Shown: positions 1,195 to 62,350 of the stretch, one piece after another
How positions within the stretch are numbered: the stretch's first letter is position 1
Layout: every line of letters begins with the position of its first letter
Source of the DNA: Escherichia coli
GTDB lineage: Bacteria > Pseudomonadota > Gammaproteobacteria > Enterobacterales > Enterobacteriaceae
Reading direction: 5' to 3' (one strand)
Length of the DNA stretch: 64,000 bases
Assembly: GCF_003018255.1 (NCBI RefSeq)
Contig: NZ_CP027440.1
Program-made: the position numbers and the translations under genes
Notes under the pieces: generated by a model
What the model saw: only the letters and a program-made list of their open reading frames with translations
Told to the model about the DNA's origin: nothing
Databases searched by the model: none

Positions 1195-3822
1195 TTATTC
1201 TTCTTCTGGCTCGTCGTCAACGTCCACTTCCGGAGCGATTTCATCGTCCCCTTCCGCGGCACTGCCGTCGATGGTATCCAGATCTTCCTCGTCAACCGGT
1301 TCAGCAACACGTTGCAGACCCACTACGTTTTCATCTTCCGCAGTACGGATGAGGATCACGCCCTGGGTGTTACGGCCCACGATGCTGATTTCCGAAACGC
1401 GAGTACGTACCAGCGTACCGGCATCGGTGATCATCATGATCTGGTCGCAGTCATCTACCTGCACCGCGCCAACCACTAAACCGTTACGTTCGGTAACCTT
1501 GATGGAGATAACCCCTTTCGTCGCACGCGACTTAGTCGGGTATTCCGCCACTGCGGTACGTTTACCATAACCGTTCTGCGTTGCGGTGAGGATTGCGCCA
1601 TCGCCACGAGGCACGATCAGAGAGACGACTTTATCGCCTTCGCCTAAACGAATACCGCGAACACCGGTGGTGTTGCAGCCCATCGCACGGACAGAAGACT
1701 CTTTAAAGCGCACCACTTTACCTTCGGCGGAGAACAGCATTACTTCGTCTTCGCCGCTGGTCAGGTCAACGCCGATCAGCTCATCGCCTTCAACCAGTTT
1801 GATCGCCACTTTACCGGCGGTACGCAGACGGTTGAACTCGGTGAGGACGGTTTTCTTCACAGTACCGTTAGCGGTCGCCATGAAGACTTTCACGCCTTCT
1901 TCAAACTCGGTCACCGGCAGGATCGCAGTGATACGTTCGTCCTGCTCCAGCGGCAGCAGGTTGACGATCGGACGACCACGCGCGCCACGAGTGGCTTCTG
2001 GTAACTGGTAGACCTTCATCGAATAGACGCGGCCACGGCTGGAGAAGCACAGAATATGGTCGTGGGTGTTCGCCACCAGCAGTCGGTCAATAAAGTCTTC
2101 TTCTTTAATACGTGCGGCAGATTTGCCTTTCCCGCCACGACGCTGCGCTTCGTATTCAGAAAGCGGCTGATACTTCACGTAGCCCTGGTGAGAGAGTGTT
2201 ACCACCACATCTTCCTGGGTGATTAGATCTTCCAGGTTGATGTCAGCGCTGTTGGCAGTGATTTCAGTACGACGTTTGTCGCCGAACTGTTCACGAACCA
2301 GCTCCAGCTCTTCGCGGATCACTTCCATCAGACGATCGGCACTGCCAAGAATACGCAGCAGTTCTGCGATCTGATCCAGCAGCTCTTTGTATTCGTCGAG
2401 CAGTTTTTCATGCTCAAGGCCGGTCAGTTTCTGCAAACGCAGATCCAGAATCGCCTGAGCTTGCTGTTCGGTCAGGTAGTACAGACCATCACGCACGCCG
2501 AACTCTGGCTCCAGCCATTCCGGACGCGCAGCATCATCGCCCGCACGTTCGAGCATGGCGGCAACGTTGCCCAGCTGCCACGGATTAGCCACCAGCGCAG
2601 TTTTCGCTTCTGCAGGCGTCGGCGCATGACGGATCAGTTCGATGATCGGGTCGATGTTCGCCAGCGCTACGGCTAATGCTTCAAGGATATGAGCACGATC
2701 GCGAGCTTTACGCAGTTCGAAAATAGTACGACGAGTCACCACTTCGCGGCGGTGACGAACAAACGCCGCGATGATGTCTTTCAGGTTCATGATCTTCGGC
2801 TGACCATGGTGCAATGCCACCATGTTGATACCGAAAGAAACCTGCAACTGGGTCTGGGAGTAGAGGTTGTTGAGCACAACTTCACCGACCGCATCGCGTT
2901 TCACTTCAATCACGATGCGCATACCGTCTTTGTCAGACTCGTCACGCAGCGCGCTGATGCCTTCCACGCGTTTTTCTTTTACCAGTTCCGCAATCTTCTC
3001 GATCAGGCGCGCTTTGTTTACCTGATACGGAATTTCGTGGACGATAATGGTTTCACGTCCGGTTTTGGCGTCAACTTCCACTTCAGCACGGGCGCGGATA
3101 TATACCTTGCCGCGACCGGTACGGTAAGCTTCTTCAATACCGCGACGACCGTTAATGATTGCCGCCGTCGGGAAGTCCGGCCCGGGGATGTGTTCCATCA
3201 GCCCTTCAATGCTGATGTCTTCATCATCGATATACGCCAGACAACCGTTGATGACTTCCGTCAAGTTGTGCGGCGGGATGTTGGTTGCCATACCTACGGC
3301 GATACCGGAAGAACCGTTCACCAGCAGGTTAGGAATTTTGGTTGGCATGACGTCGGGAATTTTTTCCGTGCCGTCATAGTTATCTACGAAATCGACCGTC
3401 TCTTTTTCGAGATCGGCCATCAGTTCATGGGCAATTTTCGCCAGACGGATTTCCGTATAACGCATTGCCGCCGCAGAGTCGCCGTCGATGGAACCGAAGT
3501 TACCCTGACCGTCTACCAGCATGTAACGCAGCGAGAATGGCTGCGCCATACGGACGATCGTGTCATAAACCGCCGAGTCACCATGGGGATGGTATTTACC
3601 GATTACGTCACCAACGACACGGGCAGATTTTTTATAGGCTTTGTTCCAGTCATTGCCTAGTACGTTCATGGCGTAAAGTACGCGACGGTGTACCGGCTTC
3701 AGGCCATCTCGGACATCTGGCAGCGCACGGCCAACAATGACCGACATCGCATAATCCAGATAGGAGCTCTTCAGCTCTTCCTCAATGTTGACCGGTGTAA
3801 TTTCTCTCGCAAGGTCGCTCAT
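1195..3822 (-). CDS. gyrA: DNA gyrase subunit A
   Basis: 875-aa ORF starting [17 protein letters not shown], with the GyrA active-site and QRDR region (..[20 protein letters not shown]..) and the acidic C-terminal tail DEPEEE. Confidence 0.97.
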
Positions 3823-3968
3823 CTAACCGCTATCCCTCTACTGTATCCCGGATTCAAAGGTCGCAAATTATAACACAGCCGCGCAGTTTGAGGTAAACCT
3901 ATACGCTTTATTCACATCCAATGCCTGATATACTCGTTTGTCTTGCCAATTACGGAGTAGAAGTGCCA

Positions 3969-4691
3969 ATGAATGCCGAAAAATCGCCGGTAAACCATAA
4001 CGTAGACCACGAAGAGATCGCTAAATTTGAAGCTGTCGCCTCCCGCTGGTGGGATCTTGAAGGTGAGTTCAAACCGCTGCACCGCATTAACCCGCTGCGT
4101 CTGGGCTATATTGCCGAGCGTGCTGGCGGTTTATTTGGCAAAAAGGTGCTCGATGTCGGTTGTGGCGGCGGCATTCTGGCCGAGAGTATGGCGCGCGAAG
4201 GTGCGACGGTGACCGGTCTGGATATGGGCTTTGAGCCATTGCAGGTGGCAAAGCTGCACGCGCTGGAAAGCGGCATTCAGGTGGATTACGTGCAGGAAAC
4301 CGTGGAAGAGCACGCGGCAAAACATGCCGGGCAGTATGATGTGGTGACCTGCATGGAGATGCTGGAGCACGTCCCCGATCCGCAGTCAGTGGTCAGAGCC
4401 TGTGCGCAACTGGTGAAACCGGGCGGCGATGTCTTTTTCTCGACGCTTAACCGCAACGGCAAGTCATGGCTGATGGCGGTGGTTGGCGCGGAATATATTT
4501 TGCGCATGGTGCCCAAAGGCACGCATGATGTGAAGAAGTTTATTAAACCGGCAGAGCTGCTGGGCTGGGTGGATCAGACCAGTCTTAAAGAGCGACATAT
4601 AACCGGGTTACATTACAACCCGATCACTAATTCCTTTAAGCTCGGCCCCGGCGTGGATGTGAACTATATGCTGCACACGCAGAATAAGTGA
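3969..4691 (+). CDS. ubiG: bifunctional 3-demethylubiquinone / 2-polyprenyl-6-hydroxyphenol O-methyltransferase
   Basis: ORF 3921-4691; the internal start [20 protein letters not shown] at 3969 matches the UbiG N-terminus as I recall it. SAM-methyltransferase motif [13 protein letters not shown]. Divergent from gyrA. Confidence 0.92.
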
Positions 4692-4831: not shown

Positions 4832-7800
4832 TTACCATTTCACCGTCATCGACAAAAACCCTGCCGTCTGGGCAAAATCATCACTCCCTTTCTGCCACGC
4901 CACGCTGCCGCGCAGGGACACTCGCTGACTGATATTGCCCGTGACTCCCACTTTTATTTCACCCCGTTGCTTCACCCCATCGTCACTGATAGTGCTGCCA
5001 TCTTCTTCAATTTCCGTCGCATGGGGATCGTGATAATAATTCAGATCTAATGTTGGTATGACATGAACAGCGGTACGCCATTCGCTGTGTAAACCCAGCC
5101 GCGTCTGAATATCATCACCCTGCGATTGTGACACGCGCGCATGGTTAGCGGCGGTAAAATCATCCTGCTGCACGCCCTGATAAATCACCTGCGCCTGCGG
5201 TTCAATCACCACACCACGCCCCGGTAACCATTGATACCCGGCTTCCAGCGAGGCGATAATCCCCGACGAGTGGTAATGATCCACGCCATCGTCTTGTTCA
5301 GAAACATCATTGTTAAACCACGCATATTGCAGCCAGCTATCCAGCCAGACCCCCTGCTTCTGATTACCGTGCTGATACCAGCTTGAGGTCAGCCCAACGG
5401 CATAACCGTGGTTCTGGTTATCGGCGCGAGTTCCGCTCATATTCGAGCGGCTGTCGCCCTGGTTATCGCTGTAGCCACCAACAATCCCAAGCATCCACTC
5501 GCCATCATCACCCCAGTGCCTGCTAAACAGATCGCCGCTAAGCTGCACCGTAGAAGTGTCTTCATGCTGAGCCAGTTGCCCTGCCGCCGTGTAATGATAA
5601 CGCCCGCCGATAACGCGTAAATTCAGCGTCTGACCATCGCCACCAGCGTGATCGCGTCGCTCCATCACAAATGCCTGATTTGCCGCACGTAGGTTATTAA
5701 AATATCCACCAACTTTGGCATTCAACACCGGCTGGTAAGCAGGCGTAGGTCCAGGGTCGGGGGTTGGGTCGGGATCCGGCGTGGGATCAGGATCTGGAGT
5801 CGGGTCCGGATCGGGCGGCGGCGTCGGAGTGACTTCTTGCGATCGCAGATACCAGTCATTGTTATCTTCCACCAGCGTATAGTCATACGCCCCCATATTG
5901 ACGTAGCCGCTTCCTGCCAGACGGAACTGCGCATTGTTTTGAAACTGCGTGGGATCAGCTGCGAAATCAACCACTTTAATACCTGTAGATGTCGGCTCAC
6001 CAATACCCGTAATGGGGTTAATTACCACGGCCGTGTTGCCAGCAGTATTACCGTTCAATACCAGTTGGTCACTTGCCGAGTCATCGCCGTTTAATTCGCT
6101 GTCGAGCAGTAGCGTACCGCCGCCGGTATAATCACCATTTACCGTCAGCGTGTCGCCAGCGACGCCATTTTGCAGGCTAATCGCACCGGACGTATTGGTC
6201 AGATTGCCATTAACCGTCACGTCGGAAAGATAAGTCAGGCTGTCAGTTTCAAGGTTGGTATTAAGCTCGCCTGTCAGCGTCACGCCATCGGTGGCATTCA
6301 CCAACGTACCGTCGCCGCTAAACAGCGAGGCATCCAGCACCTGGTTCGTATCCTGCTGCGTCAATCGCAACACAGTACCATCGGTTATGTCGATATCGCC
6401 GCCAGAGGTGGCATCGATTGAGCGAATATCCTGATTTTGCCCGGTTTCAAAAACACCGTCTTCCCCCACCCACAGTGAAGAAACATAAGGAATAATATTC
6501 TCCGCTTCACCTTTTAGCGTTCCGTCCTCCACACGTACCGCAGACGTCGCAGTGCCGCTGGCGGTCAACTCCAGCGTACCGCCGCCACTTTTAGTCAACG
6601 TGCTTACGCTATCCAGTTGTTGCCCGGTACTATCCGCCATCAACCCGCCCCATTGCGTATCTACGCCATCCTCAACGTGTATTTCGCCATCAGCGCGCAT
6701 TTCAATATTCCTGCCCTGACCTGTTGTAGCCGAGCGAGTGTCAACATCAGTCGTCACATCCATTTCACTGTGTTGTTGGGGATCTGTGAAGATCACTGAA
6801 CGGTTGTAACTTGTGTCCCCCAATTGCGAATTATCGCTGACTTCAAGCGTACCGGAGGCGATTTGCGTATTACCGAGATAACCGTTGTTATTCGCCAGCG
6901 TTACGCGCTGATCCCCCGCATTAATGACGACATAAACGCCATTCTGGCTGGCATCACTGCCGCCAATATGTAAATCATCGCCACTGCTGATATCAACGAC
7001 ATCATTACTGCCAATCACTGTCCCCCCGCTGCCGCTGATTTGCAGACCGTCATTGTATGAGCTATCGCCATCCCAGGTGGTGAAATCAGAGAGATCCAAT
7101 ACTCCGCCATTTAGCACGATCGATTGCGGATCGCTCTGCATTGCCCGTAAATCGGCCTGATTCCCCGCTAGCGACAATACGGCGTTATCTTCCACCACAA
7201 TATCGCCGGTTAATGCCATCGACTGCGCCCCTGTCAGGAGATAGCTGCCATCTTGCGCTACCGTCAACTGTCCTTCACCCTGAATCGAGCCGGAAAAACC
7301 GCCCTGGTTTACGGTAACATTGCCGCCTGCGTCGATATTCAAAATGCCATTAGCAAAACCGGTTAATGAGTGCACAAACGTTTGTTGTGTATTGCCAACA
7401 TTCAGTTCTGCCTGATACTCAGAATGAACAGTGCTGCCGACCATCAGACCAAAGCAATCCTGCGGATCGCTCTGACAGTGCGTGTCGCCGACATTCATTA
7501 ACTCATCGCTGCGCCCCAACGTCACCTCGCCATTCTGGATACTTATCTCGCCGGTAAACGCATTATTGTCGGCATTGAGGACTAACTCTCCCGCTCCCTC
7601 TTTAACGATGACTCCCGTTCCGGCAAGAGAATCAATCGCGCCATCGTTGCTGGTATTGCCTATTACCAGCGTTTTATCGGCGGCAATGTTAAATTCAGCC
7701 ACACTATGACCGATATACATAAAGCCCCCCGCCGCTGCCGTCGCCGAATGGTCATATCCCGAGGCGCTGTTATTTTCATCAATCATCACACCATTGTTTT

Positions 7801-8596
7801 GGTCATAATTATCATCAACAGAAATATCAATAAGATACGGGGATGTGGTGCTGCTGGTATAAATTGCTCCGCCATAACCTTCTGCATAGTTATTGGTAAA
7901 GGAGGTATTATTAATTATCGTTTTTCCTGAAAGATGTGTGTTATCCGTACTATTATCCGTAACATCAATAGCGCCGCCATCCCCATCACTATAACTTGTT
8001 GATGTATATGCCTGGTTATTATTAAAAGCATCATCACTTAAATAGTCGTCATTATTGATGGTATAAATTGCACCGCCTTTGCCGTCATTAGCGATGTTAT
8101 TGTGAAATACGGCGTTAGTGACACGTAAATCGGCGGCACCGGTATCATTGGTACCGGCAGAATAGATTGCTCCGCCATAGCCTCCTGCAACATTACTGTC
8201 GAAAATAACATTCGCAAGATTTATCGTTGAGTTTTCTTTAGCAAAGATAGCCCCACCATTATTATATTCGCCACTAACCGAGTTATCAGCAAACAGGGTC
8301 ATCCCTGTTTCATTTTGTGGTGAAATCGTAAATTCAGCACTTTGCTGCAAAAATACTGCGCCACCGCTGGCATTATTGGCCATACCCGAAAAAATCAACC
8401 ATTGCCCATCCGCGATGCTCCAGTCCTGCATATTGCCCGAAAGGCTTTGCCTGCTGGCCTGACAGTTCGCTTTGATATCATATCCCTGGCATGAATCGAT
8501 GACCGCTGCGGCACCGTTACCAGAGAAAAGAGATGCAATCATTGACGGGAGTAAAGATAAATACTCCTTGCGTAGAAAGATAATCCGCATATTCAT
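4832..8596 (-). CDS. yfaL: AIDA-I-type autotransporter adhesin (passenger with beta-helix repeats, Pro-rich linker, C-terminal beta-barrel)
   Basis: 1254-aa ORF with an N-terminal signal peptide (true start may be the Met 2 codons in, at 8590), repetitive GGAIY / N-rich passenger, a TPDPDP linker and a C-terminal barrel domain ending ..FLSMTVKW. Confidence 0.9.
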   Translation of the reverse strand: MNMRIIFLRKEYLSLLPSMIASLFSGNGAAAVIDSCQGYDIKANCQASRQSLSGNMQDWSIADGQWLIFSGMANNASGGAVFLQQSAEFTISPQNETGMTLFADNSVSGEYNNGGAIFAKENSTINLANVIFDSNVAGGYGGAIYSAGTNDTGAADLRVTNAVFHNNIANDGKGGAIYTINNDDYLSDDAFNNNQAYTSTSYSDGDGGAIDVTDNSTDNTHLSGKTIINNTSFTNNYAEGYGGAIYTSSTTSPYLIDISVDDNYDQNNGVMIDENNSASGYDHSATAAAGGFMYIGHSVAEFNIAADKTLVIGNTSNDGAIDSLAGTGVIVKEGAGELVLNADNNAFTGEISIQNGEVTLGRSDELMNVGDTHCQSDPQDCFGLMVGSTVHSEYQAELNVGNTQQTFVHSLTGFANGILNIDAGGNVTVNQGGFSGSIQGEGQLTVAQDGSYLLTGAQSMALTGDIVVEDNAVLSLAGNQADLRAMQSDPQSIVLNGGVLDLSDFTTWDGDSSYNDGLQISGSGGTVIGSNDVVDISSGDDLHIGGSDASQNGVYVVINAGDQRVTLANNNGYLGNTQIASGTLEVSDNSQLGDTSYNRSVIFTDPQQHSEMDVTTDVDTRSATTGQGRNIEMRADGEIHVEDGVDTQWGGLMADSTGQQLDSVSTLTKSGGGTLELTASGTATSAVRVEDGTLKGEAENIIPYVSSLWVGEDGVFETGQNQDIRSIDATSGGDIDITDGTVLRLTQQDTNQVLDASLFSGDGTLVNATDGVTLTGELNTNLETDSLTYLSDVTVNGNLTNTSGAISLQNGVAGDTLTVNGDYTGGGTLLLDSELNGDDSASDQLVLNGNTAGNTAVVINPITGIGEPTSTGIKVVDFAADPTQFQNNAQFRLAGSGYVNMGAYDYTLVEDNNDWYLRSQEVTPTPPPDPDPTPDPDPTPDPDPTPDPGPTPAYQPVLNAKVGGYFNNLRAANQAFVMERRDHAGGDGQTLNLRVIGGRYHYTAAGQLAQHEDTSTVQLSGDLFSRHWGDDGEWMLGIVGGYSDNQGDSRSNMSGTRADNQNHGYAVGLTSSWYQHGNQKQGVWLDSWLQYAWFNNDVSEQDDGVDHYHSSGIIASLEAGYQWLPGRGVVIEPQAQVIYQGVQQDDFTAANHARVSQSQGDDIQTRLGLHSEWRTAVHVIPTLDLNYYHDPHATEIEEDGSTISDDGVKQRGEIKVGVTGNISQRVSLRGSVAWQKGSDDFAQTAGFLSMTVKW
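5745..5830 (-). repeat. in-frame Pro/Asp/Thr tandem repeat (PTPPPDPDPTPDPDPTPDPDPTPDPGPTP) inside yfaL
   Basis: Near-perfect 18-nt periodicity on the coding strand; linker between the passenger and translocator domains. Confidence 0.7.
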
Positions 8597-9123
8597 CTAA
8601 CCATCATTTTCTATAAGATGGCGTATTTAATCGCATTATGCGATATAGGGTATTTTTCTTTTGTAAATTCTGCCCCTGATGTAATAACTATTTTGTTATT
8701 ATCTGATAATTAATTTAGATGCATCACAATTCAAATTAATAACTTTAAGGTAAATCGGTTATATTTAAACTAAATTAAAGCAATAAATAATATTCTTATA
8801 ATAAATACAAAAGTAACAAATTGGCTTAGTATTTAACAATAACCGCATAGAAAACAACCATTTCGACATCAACAATCGCTTACATTCGCTTATATATTGA
8901 CCACAACTGATACATCAGATTATGTGATGACTCGTGCTTAGATCAATTTTTGCAATCATTAGCAAAAAGATTAATAAACCATCTATATCAATTTATCCAA
9001 CCTATTCTGCCGTTCAAGAAATCACCGAACAGTTATTTTTAACAAATTTTTCTCTTCCCATTGACTTTCCCGGACACCTTGTCTGACCTAAGGTGCGCGA
9101 AAGCCACTTTTTCCTTCCTGAGT

Positions 9124-9208
9124 TATCCACAAAGTTATGCACTTGCAAGAGGGCCATTTTCACACTATCTTGCAGTGAATCCCAAACATACCCCCTATAT
9201 ATAGTGTT
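9124..9208 (+). promoter_or_regulatory. nrdAB promoter region with a DnaA box (TTATCCACA, 9124-9132) and two NrdR-box-like palindromes (9161-9177, 9193-9208)
   Basis: Exact DnaA-box nonamer; CACACTATCTTGCAGTG and CCCTATATATAGTGTT resemble the NrdR box consensus; located about 80-160 bp upstream of the nrdA ATG. Confidence 0.5.
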
Positions 9209-9284
9209 CTAAGCAGCTTCCCTCACTACAGGTAGTCTGCATGAAACTATTGCGGAAAGAATTCCAAAAACAGGTACGACATAC

Positions 9285-11570
9285 ATGAATCAGAATCTGC
9301 TGGTGACAAAGCGCGACGGTAGCACAGAGCGCATCAATCTCGACAAAATCCATCGCGTTCTGGATTGGGCGGCAGAAGGACTGCATAACGTTTCGATTTC
9401 CCAGGTCGAACTGCGCTCCCACATTCAGTTTTATGACGGTATCAAGACCTCTGACATCCACGAAACCATTATCAAGGCTGCCGCAGACCTGATCTCCCGT
9501 GATGCGCCGGATTATCAGTATCTCGCCGCGCGCCTGGCGATCTTCCACCTGCGTAAAAAAGCCTACGGCCAGTTTGAGCCGCCTGCGCTGTACGACCACG
9601 TGGTGAAAATGGTCGAGATGGGCAAATACGATAATCATCTGCTGGAAGACTACACGGAAGAAGAGTTCAAGCAGATGGACACGTTTATCGATCACGACCG
9701 TGATATGACCTTCTCTTATGCTGCCGTTAAGCAGCTGGAAGGCAAATATCTGGTACAGAACCGCGTGACCGGCGAAATCTACGAAAGCGCCCAGTTCCTT
9801 TATATTCTGGTTGCCGCGTGCCTGTTCTCGAACTACCCGCGTGAAACGCGCCTGCAATACGTGAAGCGTTTTTACGACGCGGTTTCCACATTTAAAATTT
9901 CGCTGCCGACGCCAATCATGTCCGGCGTGCGTACCCCGACTCGTCAGTTCAGCTCCTGCGTACTGATCGAGTGCGGCGACAGCCTGGATTCCATCAACGC
10001 CACCTCCAGCGCGATTGTTAAATACGTTTCCCAGCGTGCCGGGATCGGCATCAACGCCGGGCGTATTCGTGCGTTGGGTAGCCCGATTCGCGGTGGCGAA
10101 GCATTCCACACCGGCTGTATTCCGTTTTACAAACATTTCCAGACAGCGGTGAAATCCTGCTCTCAGGGCGGTGTGCGCGGCGGTGCGGCAACACTGTTCT
10201 ACCCGATGTGGCATCTGGAAGTGGAAAGCCTGCTGGTGTTGAAAAACAACCGTGGGGTTGAAGGCAACCGCGTGCGTCATATGGACTACGGGGTACAAAT
10301 CAACAAACTGATGTATACCCGTCTGCTGAAAGGTGAAGATATCACCCTGTTCAGCCCGTCCGACGTACCGGGGCTGTACGACGCGTTCTTCGCCGATCAG
10401 GAAGAGTTTGAACGCCTGTACACCAAATATGAGAAAGACGACAGCATCCGCAAGCAGCGTGTGAAAGCCGTTGAGCTGTTCTCGCTGATGATGCAGGAAC
10501 GTGCGTCTACCGGTCGTATCTATATTCAGAACGTAGACCACTGCAACACCCACAGCCCGTTTGATCCGGCTATTGCACCAGTGCGCCAGTCTAACCTGTG
10601 CCTGGAAATCGCCCTACCGACCAAACCACTGAACGACGTCAACGACGAGAACGGTGAAATCGCGCTGTGTACGCTTTCTGCTTTCAACCTGGGCGCAATT
10701 AACAGCCTGGATGAACTGGAAGAGCTGGCAATTCTGGCGGTTCGCGCACTCGACGCACTGCTGGATTATCAGGATTACCCGATCCCGGCCGCTAAACGTG
10801 GAGCGATGGGGCGTCGTACGCTGGGTATTGGTGTGATCAACTTCGCTTACTACCTGGCGAAGCACGGTAAACGCTACTCCGACGGCAGCGCCAACAACCT
10901 GACGCATAAAACCTTCGAAGCCATTCAGTATTACCTGCTGAAAGCGTCTAATGAGCTGGCGAAAGAGCAAGGCGCGTGCCCGTGGTTTAACGAAACCACT
11001 TACGCGAAAGGGATCCTGCCGATCGATACCTATAAGAAAGATCTGGATGCCATCGCTAATGAGCCGCTGCATTACGACTGGGAAGCACTGCGTGAGTCAA
11101 TCAAAACGCACGGCCTGCGTAACTCCACGCTTTCTGCTCTGATGCCGTCAGAGACCTCTTCGCAGATCTCTAACGCCACTAACGGTATTGAACCGCCGCG
11201 TGGTTACGTCAGCATCAAAGCGTCGAAAGACGGTATTCTGCGCCAGGTGGTGCCGGACTACGAGCATCTGCACGACGCCTATGAACTGCTGTGGGAAATG
11301 CCGGGTAACGATGGCTATCTGCAACTGGTGGGTATCATGCAGAAATTTATCGATCAGTCGATCTCTGCTAACACCAACTACGATCCGTCACGCTTCCCGT
11401 CAGGAAAAGTGCCGATGCAGCAACTGCTGAAAGACCTGCTCACCGCCTACAAATTCGGGGTCAAAACGCTGTATTATCAGAACACCCGTGACGGTGCTGA
11501 AGACGCACAAGACGATCTGGTACCGTCAATCCAGGACGATGGCTGCGAAAGCGGCGCATGTAAGATCTGA
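9285..11570 (+). CDS. nrdA: ribonucleoside-diphosphate reductase 1 alpha subunit (class Ia)
   Basis: 761-aa ORF starting [26 protein letters not shown] (ATP-cone), catalytic Cys/Glu region, C-terminal CESGACKI. Confidence 0.97.
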
Positions 11571-11578
11571 TATTGAGA

Positions 11579-11610
11579 TGCCGGATGCGGCGTAAAATGC
11601 CTTATCCGGC
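11579..11610. repeat. REP-like palindrome in the nrdA-nrdB spacer
   Basis: GCCGGATGCGGCGTAAAATGCCTTATCCGGC imperfect palindrome of REP type. Confidence 0.45.
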
Positions 11611-11635
11611 ATTAAACTCCCAACAGGACACATTC

Positions 11636-12766
11636 ATGGCATATACCACCTTTTCACAGACGAAAAATGATCAGCTGAAAGAACCGATGTTCTTTGGTCA
11701 GCCGGTTAACGTGGCTCGCTACGATCAGCAAAAATATGACATCTTCGAAAAGCTGATCGAAAAGCAGCTCTCTTTCTTCTGGCGTCCGGAAGAAGTTGAC
11801 GTTTCTCGTGACCGTATCGATTACCAGGCACTACCTGAACACGAAAAACACATCTTTATCAGCAACCTGAAATATCAGACGCTGCTGGACTCCATTCAGG
11901 GTCGCAGCCCGAACGTGGCACTGCTGCCGCTGATCTCGATCCCTGAGCTGGAAACCTGGGTCGAAACCTGGGCGTTCTCAGAAACCATTCACTCTCGTTC
12001 TTATACCCATATCATTCGTAATATCGTTAACGATCCGTCTGTTGTGTTTGACGATATCGTCACCAACGAGCAGATCCAGAAACGTGCGGAAGGGATCTCC
12101 AGCTATTACGATGAGCTGATCGAAATGACCAGCTACTGGCATCTGCTGGGCGAAGGTACCCACACCGTTAACGGTAAAACCGTAACCGTTAGCCTGCGCG
12201 AGCTGAAGAAAAAACTGTATCTCTGCCTGATGAGCGTTAACGCGCTGGAAGCGATCCGCTTCTACGTCAGCTTTGCTTGTTCCTTTGCCTTTGCAGAACG
12301 CGAACTGATGGAAGGTAACGCCAAAATTATTCGCCTGATTGCCCGCGATGAAGCCCTGCACCTGACCGGTACTCAGCATATGCTGAATCTGCTGCGCAGC
12401 GGCGCGGATGATCCGGAGATGGCGGAAATTGCCGAAGAATGTAAGCAGGAGTGCTATGACCTGTTTGTCCAGGCGGCACAGCAAGAGAAAGACTGGGCGG
12501 ATTATCTGTTCCGTGACGGTTCGATGATTGGTCTGAATAAAGACATTCTCTGCCAGTACGTTGAATACATCACCAATATCCGCATGCAGGCAGTCGGTTT
12601 GGATCTGCCGTTCCAGACACGCTCCAACCCGATCCCGTGGATCAATACCTGGCTGGTGTCTGATAACGTGCAGGTTGCTCCGCAGGAAGTGGAAGTCAGT
12701 TCTTATCTGGTCGGGCAGATTGACTCGGAAGTGGACACCGACGATTTGAGTAACTTCCAGCTCTGA
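11636..12766 (+). CDS. nrdB: ribonucleoside-diphosphate reductase 1 beta subunit (diferric-tyrosyl radical)
   Basis: ORF 11573-12766; internal start [22 protein letters not shown] at 11636 matches the NrdB N-terminus as I recall it; the 5' extension lies in the REP-containing spacer. Confidence 0.95.
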
Positions 12767-13724: not shown

Positions 13725-13926
13725 ACCCTATCGCCTGTCGTTTTTTATTAACGACAATGACTATAGATGTTTAGCTGAGGAAAATCTTAATAATACGTGT
13801 TGTATTGACGAGTATCTTATGCCGGGAACAAGTCATCTCGCTCAAAATAATTGCAATTAAGGATAACCCACAGACTTTAATGAAGAGTGGTATCGGATAG
13901 CACATAAGTGCCATCCGGTAGTTAAT

Positions 13927-15003
13927 TTACTCTTTATTAAGAAATTTTACTGCCTTATCAGGGAAATCAGTAAATAGCCCATTTACACCCGCTTTGTTAT
14001 ACAGAGCATCATATAACTGATTCACATCAGTAGTGTATTCAGGCAGTTTATCTGACCGCACGGTATAAGGATGCACTACCAGCTTGTTCTGCTGAGCATC
14101 TTGCACCATGCCAGTGAGTTTGATATTACCCGGCTGCGATGTCTCCTCAATCAACATATGGTAATCCGGACCAATACCATCTGCATATTCCGCCACCTGT
14201 TTCATGGCTCCCGGCTTAAACATCCAGTCGTAGTTGTAATTAACCCAGCTTCCGTCCGGCTGTTTCTGCTGCGTTTCATTCCAGTCGGTATAGGCAATCA
14301 GCTGTACCAGATTGAGGTCCATGCCCATTTTAGGTTCCAGCTCATTCTTAATACGCTTCAGTTCATCGGCATCAAAACATTGCAAATAAACTTTGTCGTC
14401 CTTACCGCTGTAACCATATTTCTTCAGCACTTCCAGCGTTTTTGCCGCAATATCCTTCCCTTCCTGATGATGGAACCACGGCGCTTTAATTTCTGGATAG
14501 ATACCGATATTTTTCCCGGTAGAGTGATTTAACCCCTGAACAAATTCAATCTCTTCTTCGAAAGTGTGTACCCGGAAGTCAGATTTACCCATCGGGAAAC
14601 GGCCCGGATAAGTCTGTACTTTCTTACCGTTTTCAATATCGAAACCTTCGGTAAATTTCAGTGACTTAATTTCATCGAGCGTGAAATCTATCGCGTAGTA
14701 ACGACCGTCTTTGCGCGCCCGATCCGGGAAACGATCGGCAACATCAGTAACACGATCGAGATAATGGTCATGCAGGACAACCAGATGGTCGTCCTTCGTC
14801 ATCACCAAATCCTGTTCCAGATAATCCGCTCCCTGCGCATACGCCATCGCTTTTGCTGGCAGCGTATGCTCCGGCAAATATCCACTGGCACCGCGATGGG
14901 CGATGACTATTTTTTCGTTGCTGTCCGCCGCCATTGCACTACTTCCCATGACCATAGTGCTCATCATGATCGCCATGCTAAGGTTTTTCAGCGTCAATTT
15001 CAT
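13927..15003 (-). CDS. glpQ: periplasmic glycerophosphodiester phosphodiesterase
   Basis: ORF 13927-15060; the signal-peptide start MKLTLKNLSMAIMMSTMVMGSSAMA at 15003 is preferred; lies 4 nt downstream of glpT. Confidence 0.93.
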   Translation of the reverse strand: MKLTLKNLSMAIMMSTMVMGSSAMAADSNEKIVIAHRGASGYLPEHTLPAKAMAYAQGADYLEQDLVMTKDDHLVVLHDHYLDRVTDVADRFPDRARKDGRYYAIDFTLDEIKSLKFTEGFDIENGKKVQTYPGRFPMGKSDFRVHTFEEEIEFVQGLNHSTGKNIGIYPEIKAPWFHHQEGKDIAAKTLEVLKKYGYSGKDDKVYLQCFDADELKRIKNELEPKMGMDLNLVQLIAYTDWNETQQKQPDGSWVNYNYDWMFKPGAMKQVAEYADGIGPDYHMLIEETSQPGNIKLTGMVQDAQQNKLVVHPYTVRSDKLPEYTTDVNQLYDALYNKAGVNGLFTDFPDKAVKFLNKE

Positions 15004-27873: not shown

Positions 27874-28065
27874 GTAAACTCCACCTATAGACAAGCGCAA
27901 CCAGACAATTACCGTGAAATTGAGCGACATTTCTGGCGATAATTAGCAGTTGGTGTAATATTAAAAATCCTGCGATGCCGGCAAAATGCCTCAAAATTTT
28001 GCCAAATGCAAAGCCTAAATAAGAAAAAATATAAAAATTTCAATATTTACGTCTAATATTAGTTT

Positions 28066-28082
28066 CTTAAGGTTAAGTTAAT
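28066..28082. promoter_or_regulatory. PmrA(BasR)-box-like direct repeat CTTAAG-GTTAA-GTTAAT upstream of arnB
   Basis: Matches the YTTAAK-N5-YTTAAK PmrA box; lies about 100 bp upstream of the arnB start in the ais/arnB divergent region. Confidence 0.45.
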
Positions 28083-28180
28083 ATTCTATCCTTAAAATTT
28101 TGCTCCAAATGGCAAAATATACACAACACTCTTTATAGCAAATATAAGTGGACAGGTATTCAATGGCGGAAGGAAAAGCA

Positions 28181-61358: not shown

Positions 61359-61802
61359 TTAGCGTTGACGATTAGCGATACTGTTCGTTTCCGGGTTCAT
61401 ACGCTCGCGGCGTGAACGCGCGGGCGTCCAGTCCAGCGCGCCAATACGCACCAGATAAACCAGACCTGCCAGTAACACAAAAATAAAAATTGCAGCTTCC
61501 ACAAAGCCTACCCAGCCGCTTTCGCGGATAGAGGTTGACCATGCGAACAGATACAGCGCTTCAACGTCGAAGATAACGAAGAACATGGCCACCAGATAAA
61601 ACTTGGCGGACAGGCGTAAGCGGGCGGAGCCGACCGAGTCGATACCGGATTCAAACGGAACGTTTTTCGACCTTGCGCGTGCGCGACCGCCTAAAAACCA
61701 ACCGCCTACCAGCATCAGGCAACACAGGCCAATGGCAACGATAAGAAAGATAGCGAATGCCCAGTGATGAGCGATGACTTCAGTGGATGTTGACATACTC
61801 AT
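61359..61802 (-). CDS. nuoA: NADH:quinone oxidoreductase subunit A
   Basis: 147-aa 3-TM subunit; first gene of the operon. Confidence 0.93.
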
Positions 61803-62350
61803 TGCTTACTCATCAAAAGTAGCGCCAGATTCACTGCTCTTCACGGCAGATGGACGCCACATCGATTCATGGGGAGGAATAAAAAAAACCTTACAATCAC
61901 TGTAGAAATTCTTTTATACAGCTAATTGATGTGGTCTTTTACTCCTTTCTATAACCTTTTGTCAACTTTAACAAAAGTTTCTTCACATTAGTTTACATAA
62001 TATCAACACCATTAGCATTTAATGCCCTTTCACCCCAGATCCTTGACGACTCCAGGATAATTAGATGTTGTTGAATCGTGTCCGTTGTGAAGCAATGGAA
62101 AAAATACGGGTCTATTTTGACAGGAATTTGTGTCGATTCCTCCCCCCAAAAGAGAGTATTTTCTTGATCTGTGACACGCTTTTGTCATTCCATAACAAAA
62201 ACGCAGCAACAAATTTACGTATTTTTTAACATCATTGTAGCAGGTGATTTTTTTCAGGCGATTATTTGTGCGTTCGGGACGTGAATCTCTGGTGATTGAA
62301 AAATGAACAGTTTTGTACGTTCTGCACGATACGAGGAAGGCTTTTTACTA
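61803..62350 (-). promoter_or_regulatory. nuo operon promoter / long 5' leader region
   Basis: About 550 bp non-coding AT-rich region upstream of nuoA; individual regulator binding sites not mapped here. Confidence 0.45.

Follow-up and report, generated by a model that had tools for sequence, protein, structure and literature searches.

The yfaL-nrdA divergent spacer

We analysed a 64-kb stretch of DNA (64,000 nucleotides, hereafter the window), the whole of which is E. coli chromosome. A region at 8597-9120, upstream of the autotransporter gene yfaL, had been singled out in an original prediction as consistent with a target of xenogeneic silencing. Gene order was taken from the open reading frame (ORF) list and from the RefSeq annotation, which was read from a genome identical to the window over 8597-9284; nrdB and yfaE come after nrdA in both sources. 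The main features are:

1195-3822, minus strand: gyrA (ORF list and RefSeq annotation)
3921-4691, plus strand: ubiG (ORF list and RefSeq annotation)
4832-8590, minus strand: yfaL/ehaC, AIDA-I family autotransporter adhesin, B2-type allele (ORF list, RefSeq annotation and allele comparison)
7791-8590, minus strand: AT-enriched 5' coding part of yfaL, 42.4% GC
8591-9013: yfaL-linked AT-rich spacer, 27.4% GC (over 8591-9017), the core of the region under study
9014-9157, minus strand: ypaB, an annotated 47-aa ORF (RefSeq) overlapping the nrdAB promoter
9285-11570, plus strand: nrdA, class Ia ribonucleotide reductase alpha subunit, divergent neighbour of yfaL (ORF list and RefSeq annotation)

The gene call of the original prediction agrees with RefSeq, where the gene is annotated as the AIDA-I family autotransporter adhesin YfaL/EhaC. 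The first in-frame ATG of the yfaL ORF lies at 8596 and the annotated ATG at 8590; because of the latter, the divergent spacer between yfaL and nrdA was set at 8591-9284 (694 bp). The predicted region, 8597-9120, is the larger, yfaL-proximal part (about two-thirds) of this spacer. Reading it from the yfaL side is incomplete, as this overlooks that the spacer also serves the essential nrdAB operon. The region had further been described as devoid of ORFs, which holds for ORFs of at least 60 aa, none of which lies inside; ORFs of 30-50 aa are present, and ypaB overlaps the right end. The latter ORF had no NCBIfam match. In B2 genomes its start codon is CTG in place of ATG (T to G at 9157) and the ORF is not annotated; given this start, the status of ypaB as a protein-coding gene is doubtful.

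Base composition

The strong AT-richness claimed for the ~520 bp upstream of yfaL was borne out, 8597-9120 having 30.5% GC against 52.2% for the window (33.1% for 8597-9284). Set against every 524-bp window (63,477 in all), this value corresponded to z = -4.35; only 0.2% were as low in GC, every one of them overlapping the yfaL upstream site, and the minimum over the 64 kb (28.4%) fell at 8526-9049. GC in 100-bp windows, the check proposed with the prediction, reached its 64-kb minimum of 16% in the window starting at 8706, and both quoted AT runs were found in the sequence (at about 8711-8721 and 8783-8814). TpA steps were 2.5 times as frequent in the tract, and A/T tracts of four or more 2.4 times denser, than window-wide. 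GC well below background over several hundred bp is a property of H-NS xenogeneic-silencing targets.

Low GC was spread unevenly across the spacer, with 27.4% over 8591-9017 and 41.9% over 9018-9284. It also continued into yfaL over the first ~800 nt of the gene, where GC was 42.4% compared to 52.8% in the rest of the gene (50.6% overall).

A yfaL-linked module and an ancestral nrdAB module

We compared the neighbourhoods of nrdA from 80 Enterobacterales species, which gave ~75 informative loci. In ~70 species, ubiG directly adjoins nrdA without yfaL between them, the spacer being about 350-540 bp long at ~40% GC (lowest 100-bp GC typically ~0.3). yfaL was found between ubiG and nrdA at only five of the ~75 informative species loci:

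Genome labelled E. coli (L004)
E. albertii
Pseudocitrobacter MAG, YfaL 70% aa identity
Enterobacteriaceae RIT691, YfaL 57% aa identity
Rahnella bonaserana, YfaL 55% aa identity

All five have a spacer of 677-702 bp upstream of nrdA, and the extra DNA upstream of yfaL amounts to about 340-430 bp. Within Rahnella, yfaL occurs in one species and is absent from four others. Such a patchy distribution is that of a xenogeneic-silencing target, though yfaL is core within E. coli (5425 of 5426 genomes), and any acquisition must therefore be ancient.

Spacers were aligned across genera with MAFFT, anchored at the nrdA ATG; blastn across the spacer between genera matched the coding edges only. Homology between E. 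coli and genera without yfaL runs from the nrdA ATG back to about 9012-9018 (GTTCAAGAAATCA...), with invariant alignment columns from about 9012 onward. To the left of this boundary, the genera without yfaL have the ubiG terminator palindrome and then ubiG itself, and no counterpart of 8591-~9013 was found in any of the ~70 sampled Enterobacterales species in which ubiG adjoins nrdA. The spacer therefore consists of yfaL-linked DNA (8591-~9013) and ancestral nrdAB control DNA (~9014-9284), and a control block conserved across genera was seen in 9014-9284 only, not in 8591-9013. The term 'xenogeneic' stands insofar as yfaL and its extra upstream DNA occur together at five of ~75 loci, but it has to be withdrawn for the ~105 bp at 9014-9120, which are ancestral nrdAB DNA. 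This clean boundary at ~9014, and the presence of a yfaL cassette at the same ubiG-nrdA site in distant genera, are added here to what was known of the locus.

In the distantly related, yfaL-bearing RIT691, the yfaL-side spacer has 43.8% GC. For Rahnella, whose spacer could not be divided into its two sides, the value over the full length is 42.8%. The presence of yfaL therefore does not require an extremely AT-rich spacer.

The nrdAB control region

Features on the nrdAB side of the boundary are:

9014-9284, plus strand: ancestral nrdAB control region and leader, 41.9-42% GC (cross-genus alignment)
~9012-9080: block conserved across genera (MAFFT alignment)
9123-9131 and 9135-9143: presumed DnaA boxes, by consensus
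9143-9148 (-35) and 9166-9171 (-10): what we take to be the nrdAB promoter, TTGCAA-17-TATCTT, by consensus
9162-9177 and 9190-9207: presumed NrdR boxes, by consensus
9070-9085 and 9105-9120: HusR boxes, exact match to the published boxes (PMC12844172)

The region thus meets a known system, the nrdAB upstream region with its DnaA, Fis, IciA/ArgP, NrdR, HusR and H-NS inputs. Both occupy the same spacer; the HusR boxes are inside 8597-9120, whose right-hand end is closely followed by the DnaA boxes, the promoter and the NrdR boxes. The difference is that only 9014-9120 belongs to that system, 8591-9013 being absent from genera without yfaL.

The position of the DnaA boxes varied between lineages when window 9085-9230 was compared with the corresponding loci L006-L030. 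In Escherichia and Pseudocitrobacter, two DnaA boxes stand immediately upstream of the -35 element. Citrobacter, Enterobacter, Raoultella, Kluyvera, Kosakonia, others and RIT691 carry an inverted DnaA box pair close behind NrdR box 2, within the 5' UTR; the -10 element there differs (TAGAAT). B2-type genomes have a 13-bp deletion in the nrdA leader (window 9253-9265). The segment upstream of the nrdAB promoter (window 9047-9161; L003 4001-4115) also has a ~78% identical copy on E. coli plasmids, found at 235 plasmid places in the collection. The T-tract, the two DnaA boxes and the TTGCAA -35 all recur in this copy, which lies just upstream of a gene pair, one for a hot-like DNA polymerase III theta and the other humD; the plasmid concerned further carries metG, apbC and a type I restriction-modification system.

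Variation within Escherichia and relatives

The two sides of the boundary differed strongly in conservation. Over 9041-9240, identity was 96-100% among the window, K-12-like, O157, B2 and L004 sequences, and 82-98% for E. albertii. Identity over 8591-8940 was 75-100% within E. coli, and no similarity above shuffled controls was detected between this segment and E. albertii, L004 or Pseudocitrobacter (z -0.8 to 1.1); 8941-9013 was partly kept in E. albertii (64-76%). Three mutually unrecognisable versions of the spacer thus exist: one in E. coli proper, one shared by E. albertii and L004, and one in Pseudocitrobacter. In each of the three, ~430 bp with a GC content of 27-30% separate yfaL from the invariant control block of nrdAB. 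The yfaL-side spacer is 427-438 bp long with 27-30% GC in every Escherichia and Pseudocitrobacter version, and the total spacer length in these genera is 694-702 bp.

The tract (8591-9013) is present in all 5,425 complete E. coli genomes. Identity to the window is 80-90% in about 81% of these (about 86-87% for the K-12/O157 type) and 90-99% in ~19%, the latter range being the one in which B2-type genomes fall. The window itself combines two types:

8591-8845: B2-type haplotype sub-segment, 1 mismatch to strain clone D i2 (alignment)
8846-9013: K-12/O157-type haplotype sub-segment, 1 mismatch to O157 versus 16 to B2 (alignment)

Over 8641-8840, the window is about 75-84% identical to K-12. We therefore regard the window as a recombinant of two major E. 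coli haplotypes, an arrangement found in only six of 5425 genomes (at least 99% identical). The two haplotypes are ~13% apart and occur, with their recombinants, alongside a dimorphism of the YfaL passenger domain, with which the spacer block is continuous.

This passenger dimorphism (window 6200-8400) is allelic and trans-species. At alignment columns 300-800, the passenger of the window and B2 type has 94-98% aa identity to E. albertii and L004 and only 68-76% to the K-12/O157 type.

H-NS binding of the K-12 orthologue, and promoter-like sites

In E. coli K-12, H-NS silences acquired AT-rich DNA at bgl and proU as well as at cryptic operons for adhesins and fimbriae. The yfaL locus resembles these in having AT-rich DNA that lies upstream of an adhesin gene and continues into its 5' end, in the patchy phylogenetic distribution of that gene, and in the gene having been studied after insertion of a constitutive promoter. 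It differs in that yfaL belongs to the E. coli core genome, with a largely normal GC content (50.6% overall), and in that bridging between upstream and downstream sites is something we only infer for yfaL.

Taking the shift between U00096.2 and U00096.3 to be 1978 bp, the K-12 promoter island 2342143_534 maps to about window 8542-9075, in agreement with its published gene labels. The K-12 orthologue of the tract is this island, listed for MG1655 as yfaL(-)/ypaB(-) (Panyukov & Ozoline 2013, PMC3661553). Its score there is 'A', the mark for H-NS binding in every one of the ChIP studies compiled (Grainger, Kahramanoglou, Oshima), and it is flagged as associated with predicted foreign genes (PMC3661553). 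Genomic SELEX also placed an H-NS site and an RpoD-holoenzyme site in the K-12 yfaL<HNS>nrdA spacer (Shimada et al., PMC3946193). The claim of H-NS-bound DNA is thus supported for the K-12 orthologue by both compiled ChIP (PMC3661553) and genomic SELEX (PMC3946193). H-NS is also listed in reviews as a repressor or binder of nrdAB (PMC4009431; PMC12176259). The tract is therefore, in kind, already known gene-silencing DNA with a published K-12 counterpart. The island is the orthologue of the window locus and likewise AT-rich; it is dense in promoter-like sites and next to a predicted-foreign gene. The two differ in that the window carries a recombinant haplotype, and the occupancy data are those of K-12. 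No report of yfaL derepression in an hns mutant was found in the literature naming both yfaL and H-NS.

Sites relevant to binding and transcription in the window are:

8919-8946, minus strand: candidate sigma-70 promoter for yfaL, TTGATC-16-CATAAT (consensus scan)
8990-8999, minus strand: H-NS-motif near-match TGGATAAATT, 1 mismatch to TCGATAAATT
8939-8948: H-NS-motif near-match TAGATCAATT, 2 mismatches to TCGATAAATT
8545-8606: equivalent, taking the same 1978-bp shift, of two K-12 GadX ChIP-exo peaks (2342146-2342207) at the yfaL start codon (PMC4918353, Supplementary Table 3)

The candidate yfaL promoter implies a ~320-nt leader, and the RpoD genomic SELEX table lists the same TTGATC-16-CATAAT as the yfaL promoter (PMC3946193). 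GadX binds at the K-12 yfaL start; however, a gadX knockout left yfaL expression unchanged, and the table records no yfaL transcription start (PMC4918353). The biofilm phenotype of YfaL was studied with the gene driven by an inserted constitutive promoter (PMC3764049), which fits, indirectly, the description of yfaL as cryptic under laboratory conditions.

Promoter islands are defined by at least eight predicted transcription start points per 100 bp over at least 300 bp, using PlatProm (Panyukov & Ozoline). Our simple hexamer scan, which differs from PlatProm, found four promoter-like sites in 524 bp versus 17 in the surrounding 20 kb, a ~9-fold higher density. This was no higher than local composition predicts (4 versus 4.0 expected). 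Three further promoter-like matches lie at 7927-8289, inside the AT-enriched 5' part of yfaL. The H-NS 10-mer TCGATAAATT was not enriched either, with 60 near-matches window-wide versus 57.7 expected, two of them in the tract.

The claim that the tract is curved DNA proved not to be robust, as two prediction methods each gave one local signal, in different places. A wedge model centred a bend at ~8952, the second strongest in the 64 kb; AA/TT phasing peaked at ~9081 (top 0.3%) and gave no signal at 8950. Neither method flagged the AT-richest core at 8600-8800. Given this disagreement, we do not endorse curvature for the tract as a whole. With promoter density explained by composition, the 10-mer not enriched and the curvature methods at odds, these analyses lend no independent support to the mechanism.

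A 17-nt direct repeat (TAGATCAATTTTTGCAA / TATATCAATTTATCCAA) was seen at 8939-8955 and 8984-9000, with 45-bp spacing. Its ATCAAT cores coincide with both H-NS-motif near-matches; E. albertii and Pseudocitrobacter retain these cores in part, frequently as GATC (Dam) sites.

Proposed silencing of yfaL next to an essential promoter

We consider it probable that the tract is H-NS-bound, AT-rich, yfaL-linked DNA that silences yfaL, which is the best explanation of the data; the binding is taken from the K-12 literature, and silencing in the present haplotype is extrapolated from it. The segment 8591-~9013 (27% GC, TpA-rich), which goes with yfaL, would serve as a binding platform on which H-NS polymerises, probably together with the AT-enriched first ~800 nt of the gene. 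This 5' coding part may act as a downstream arm for spreading or bridging of H-NS. RNA polymerase would bind the many promoter-like sites and be trapped there or excluded, so that productive transcription of yfaL is blocked and the adhesin stays silent in laboratory conditions. The H-NS filament would adjoin, and partly reach, the ancestral nrdAB control region (~9014-9284), so that H-NS would be one among several factors modulating this essential promoter. Binding of H-NS and RNA polymerase, promoter-island status and repression of nrdAB by H-NS are supported by K-12 literature; occupancy in the window haplotype, the silencing itself and bridging to the 5' coding region we infer. The locus would then be an example of H-NS-coated AT-rich DNA silencing an adhesin gene beside the promoter of an essential, cell-cycle-regulated operon, which mainly confirms existing knowledge.

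An alternative is that the tract mainly acts in cis on nrdAB as an upstream regulatory element (AT-rich sequence, 45-bp inverted repeat, Fis and IciA sites) and is not a silencer of yfaL. An AT-rich sequence and a 45-bp inverted repeat upstream of nrd are reportedly needed for cell-cycle-timed transcription (Sun et al. 1994; Jacobson & Fuchs 1998; both cited second-hand). Fis, IciA, DnaA and H-NS all regulate nrdAB, T-tracts with 10-11-bp phasing occur at 9036-9112, and the partial conservation of 8941-9013 with E. albertii (64-76%) points the same way. Genera without yfaL, however, run nrdAB on ~350 bp of upstream DNA at ~40% GC with nothing like 8591-9013, and this segment is hypervariable to the point of being unrecognisable in close relatives, whereas the nrd side is 96-100% conserved. 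Absence from those genera and hypervariability make it unlikely that 8591-9013 serves nrdAB control alone. The 45-bp repeat was itself not located in the sequence, a repeat finder and an ungapped arm search giving weak candidates (12/20 at 8936-8979; 15/24 at 9060-9108). The conserved AT-rich block at 9015-9060 is a more likely home of the nrd element, and touches the right edge of the predicted region only; both the AT-rich sequence and the 45-bp repeat of the literature are more plausibly placed within the conserved block 9015-9122.

That the tract is a functionless compositional relic beside yfaL, produced by AT-biased drift and bound by H-NS incidentally, would account for the lack of sequence conservation between lineages, the lack of H-NS motif enrichment, a promoter-like density explained by composition, and the 43.8% GC of the yfaL-side spacer in RIT691. 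Drift of this kind fits poorly with the retention of spacer length (694-702 bp) and GC (27-30%) in three mutually unrecognisable haplotypes; the tract is moreover kept in 5425 of 5426 E. coli genomes, and H-NS and RNA polymerase binding is reproducible across datasets. We judge a relic quite improbable. A hidden gene, small RNA or mobile-element remnant is very improbable indeed. Small ORFs of 30-50 aa exist, but five of them had no NCBIfam match, and the divergence of the tract between lineages speaks against a product. A weak Rfam match to IS605-orfB-I (minus strand 8897-9104, 16.8 bits, E = 0.65) is far under the gathering score of 94.2, and was taken as chance. The segment 8591-9013 had no match in the phage collection, and its plasmid matches were all to chromosome-sized or chromosome-derived E. 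coli records; a mobile-element origin was therefore rejected.

H-NS silencing of yfaL thus remains the preferred reading, and the comparison adds that, on the silencer side, length and composition persist through sequence turnover and recombination. A tentative, less likely possibility is that composition and length, and not sequence, define the yfaL-side spacer as a silencer or insulator; selection would then act on H-NS-binding capacity and/or on spacing that shields the essential nrdAB promoter from its variable surface-antigen neighbour. Whether composition alone constrains H-NS silencers, and how an essential promoter is shielded from an adjoining silenced domain, could be addressed with this locus as a natural test case.

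Other features of the window

After the yfaL-nrdA spacer, the next-lowest GC stretches of the window are 44637-46400 and 61730-64000 (35-38% over 524 bp). Compared to a K-12-like genome, the window is without ~168 bp in the nrdA-nrdB spacer (window ~11571-11640) and ~261 bp between inaA and glpQ (~13800-14000); the K-12 inaA-glpQ interval has pseudogene fragments, including a LysR-family remnant. Predicted bending and AA/TT phasing both reached their maximum for the whole window at 27931-28147, between a 219-aa minus-strand ORF and a pair of 390-aa and 322-aa plus-strand ORFs (probably ais and arnBC), and the K-12 promoter-island list includes ais(-)/arnB(+).
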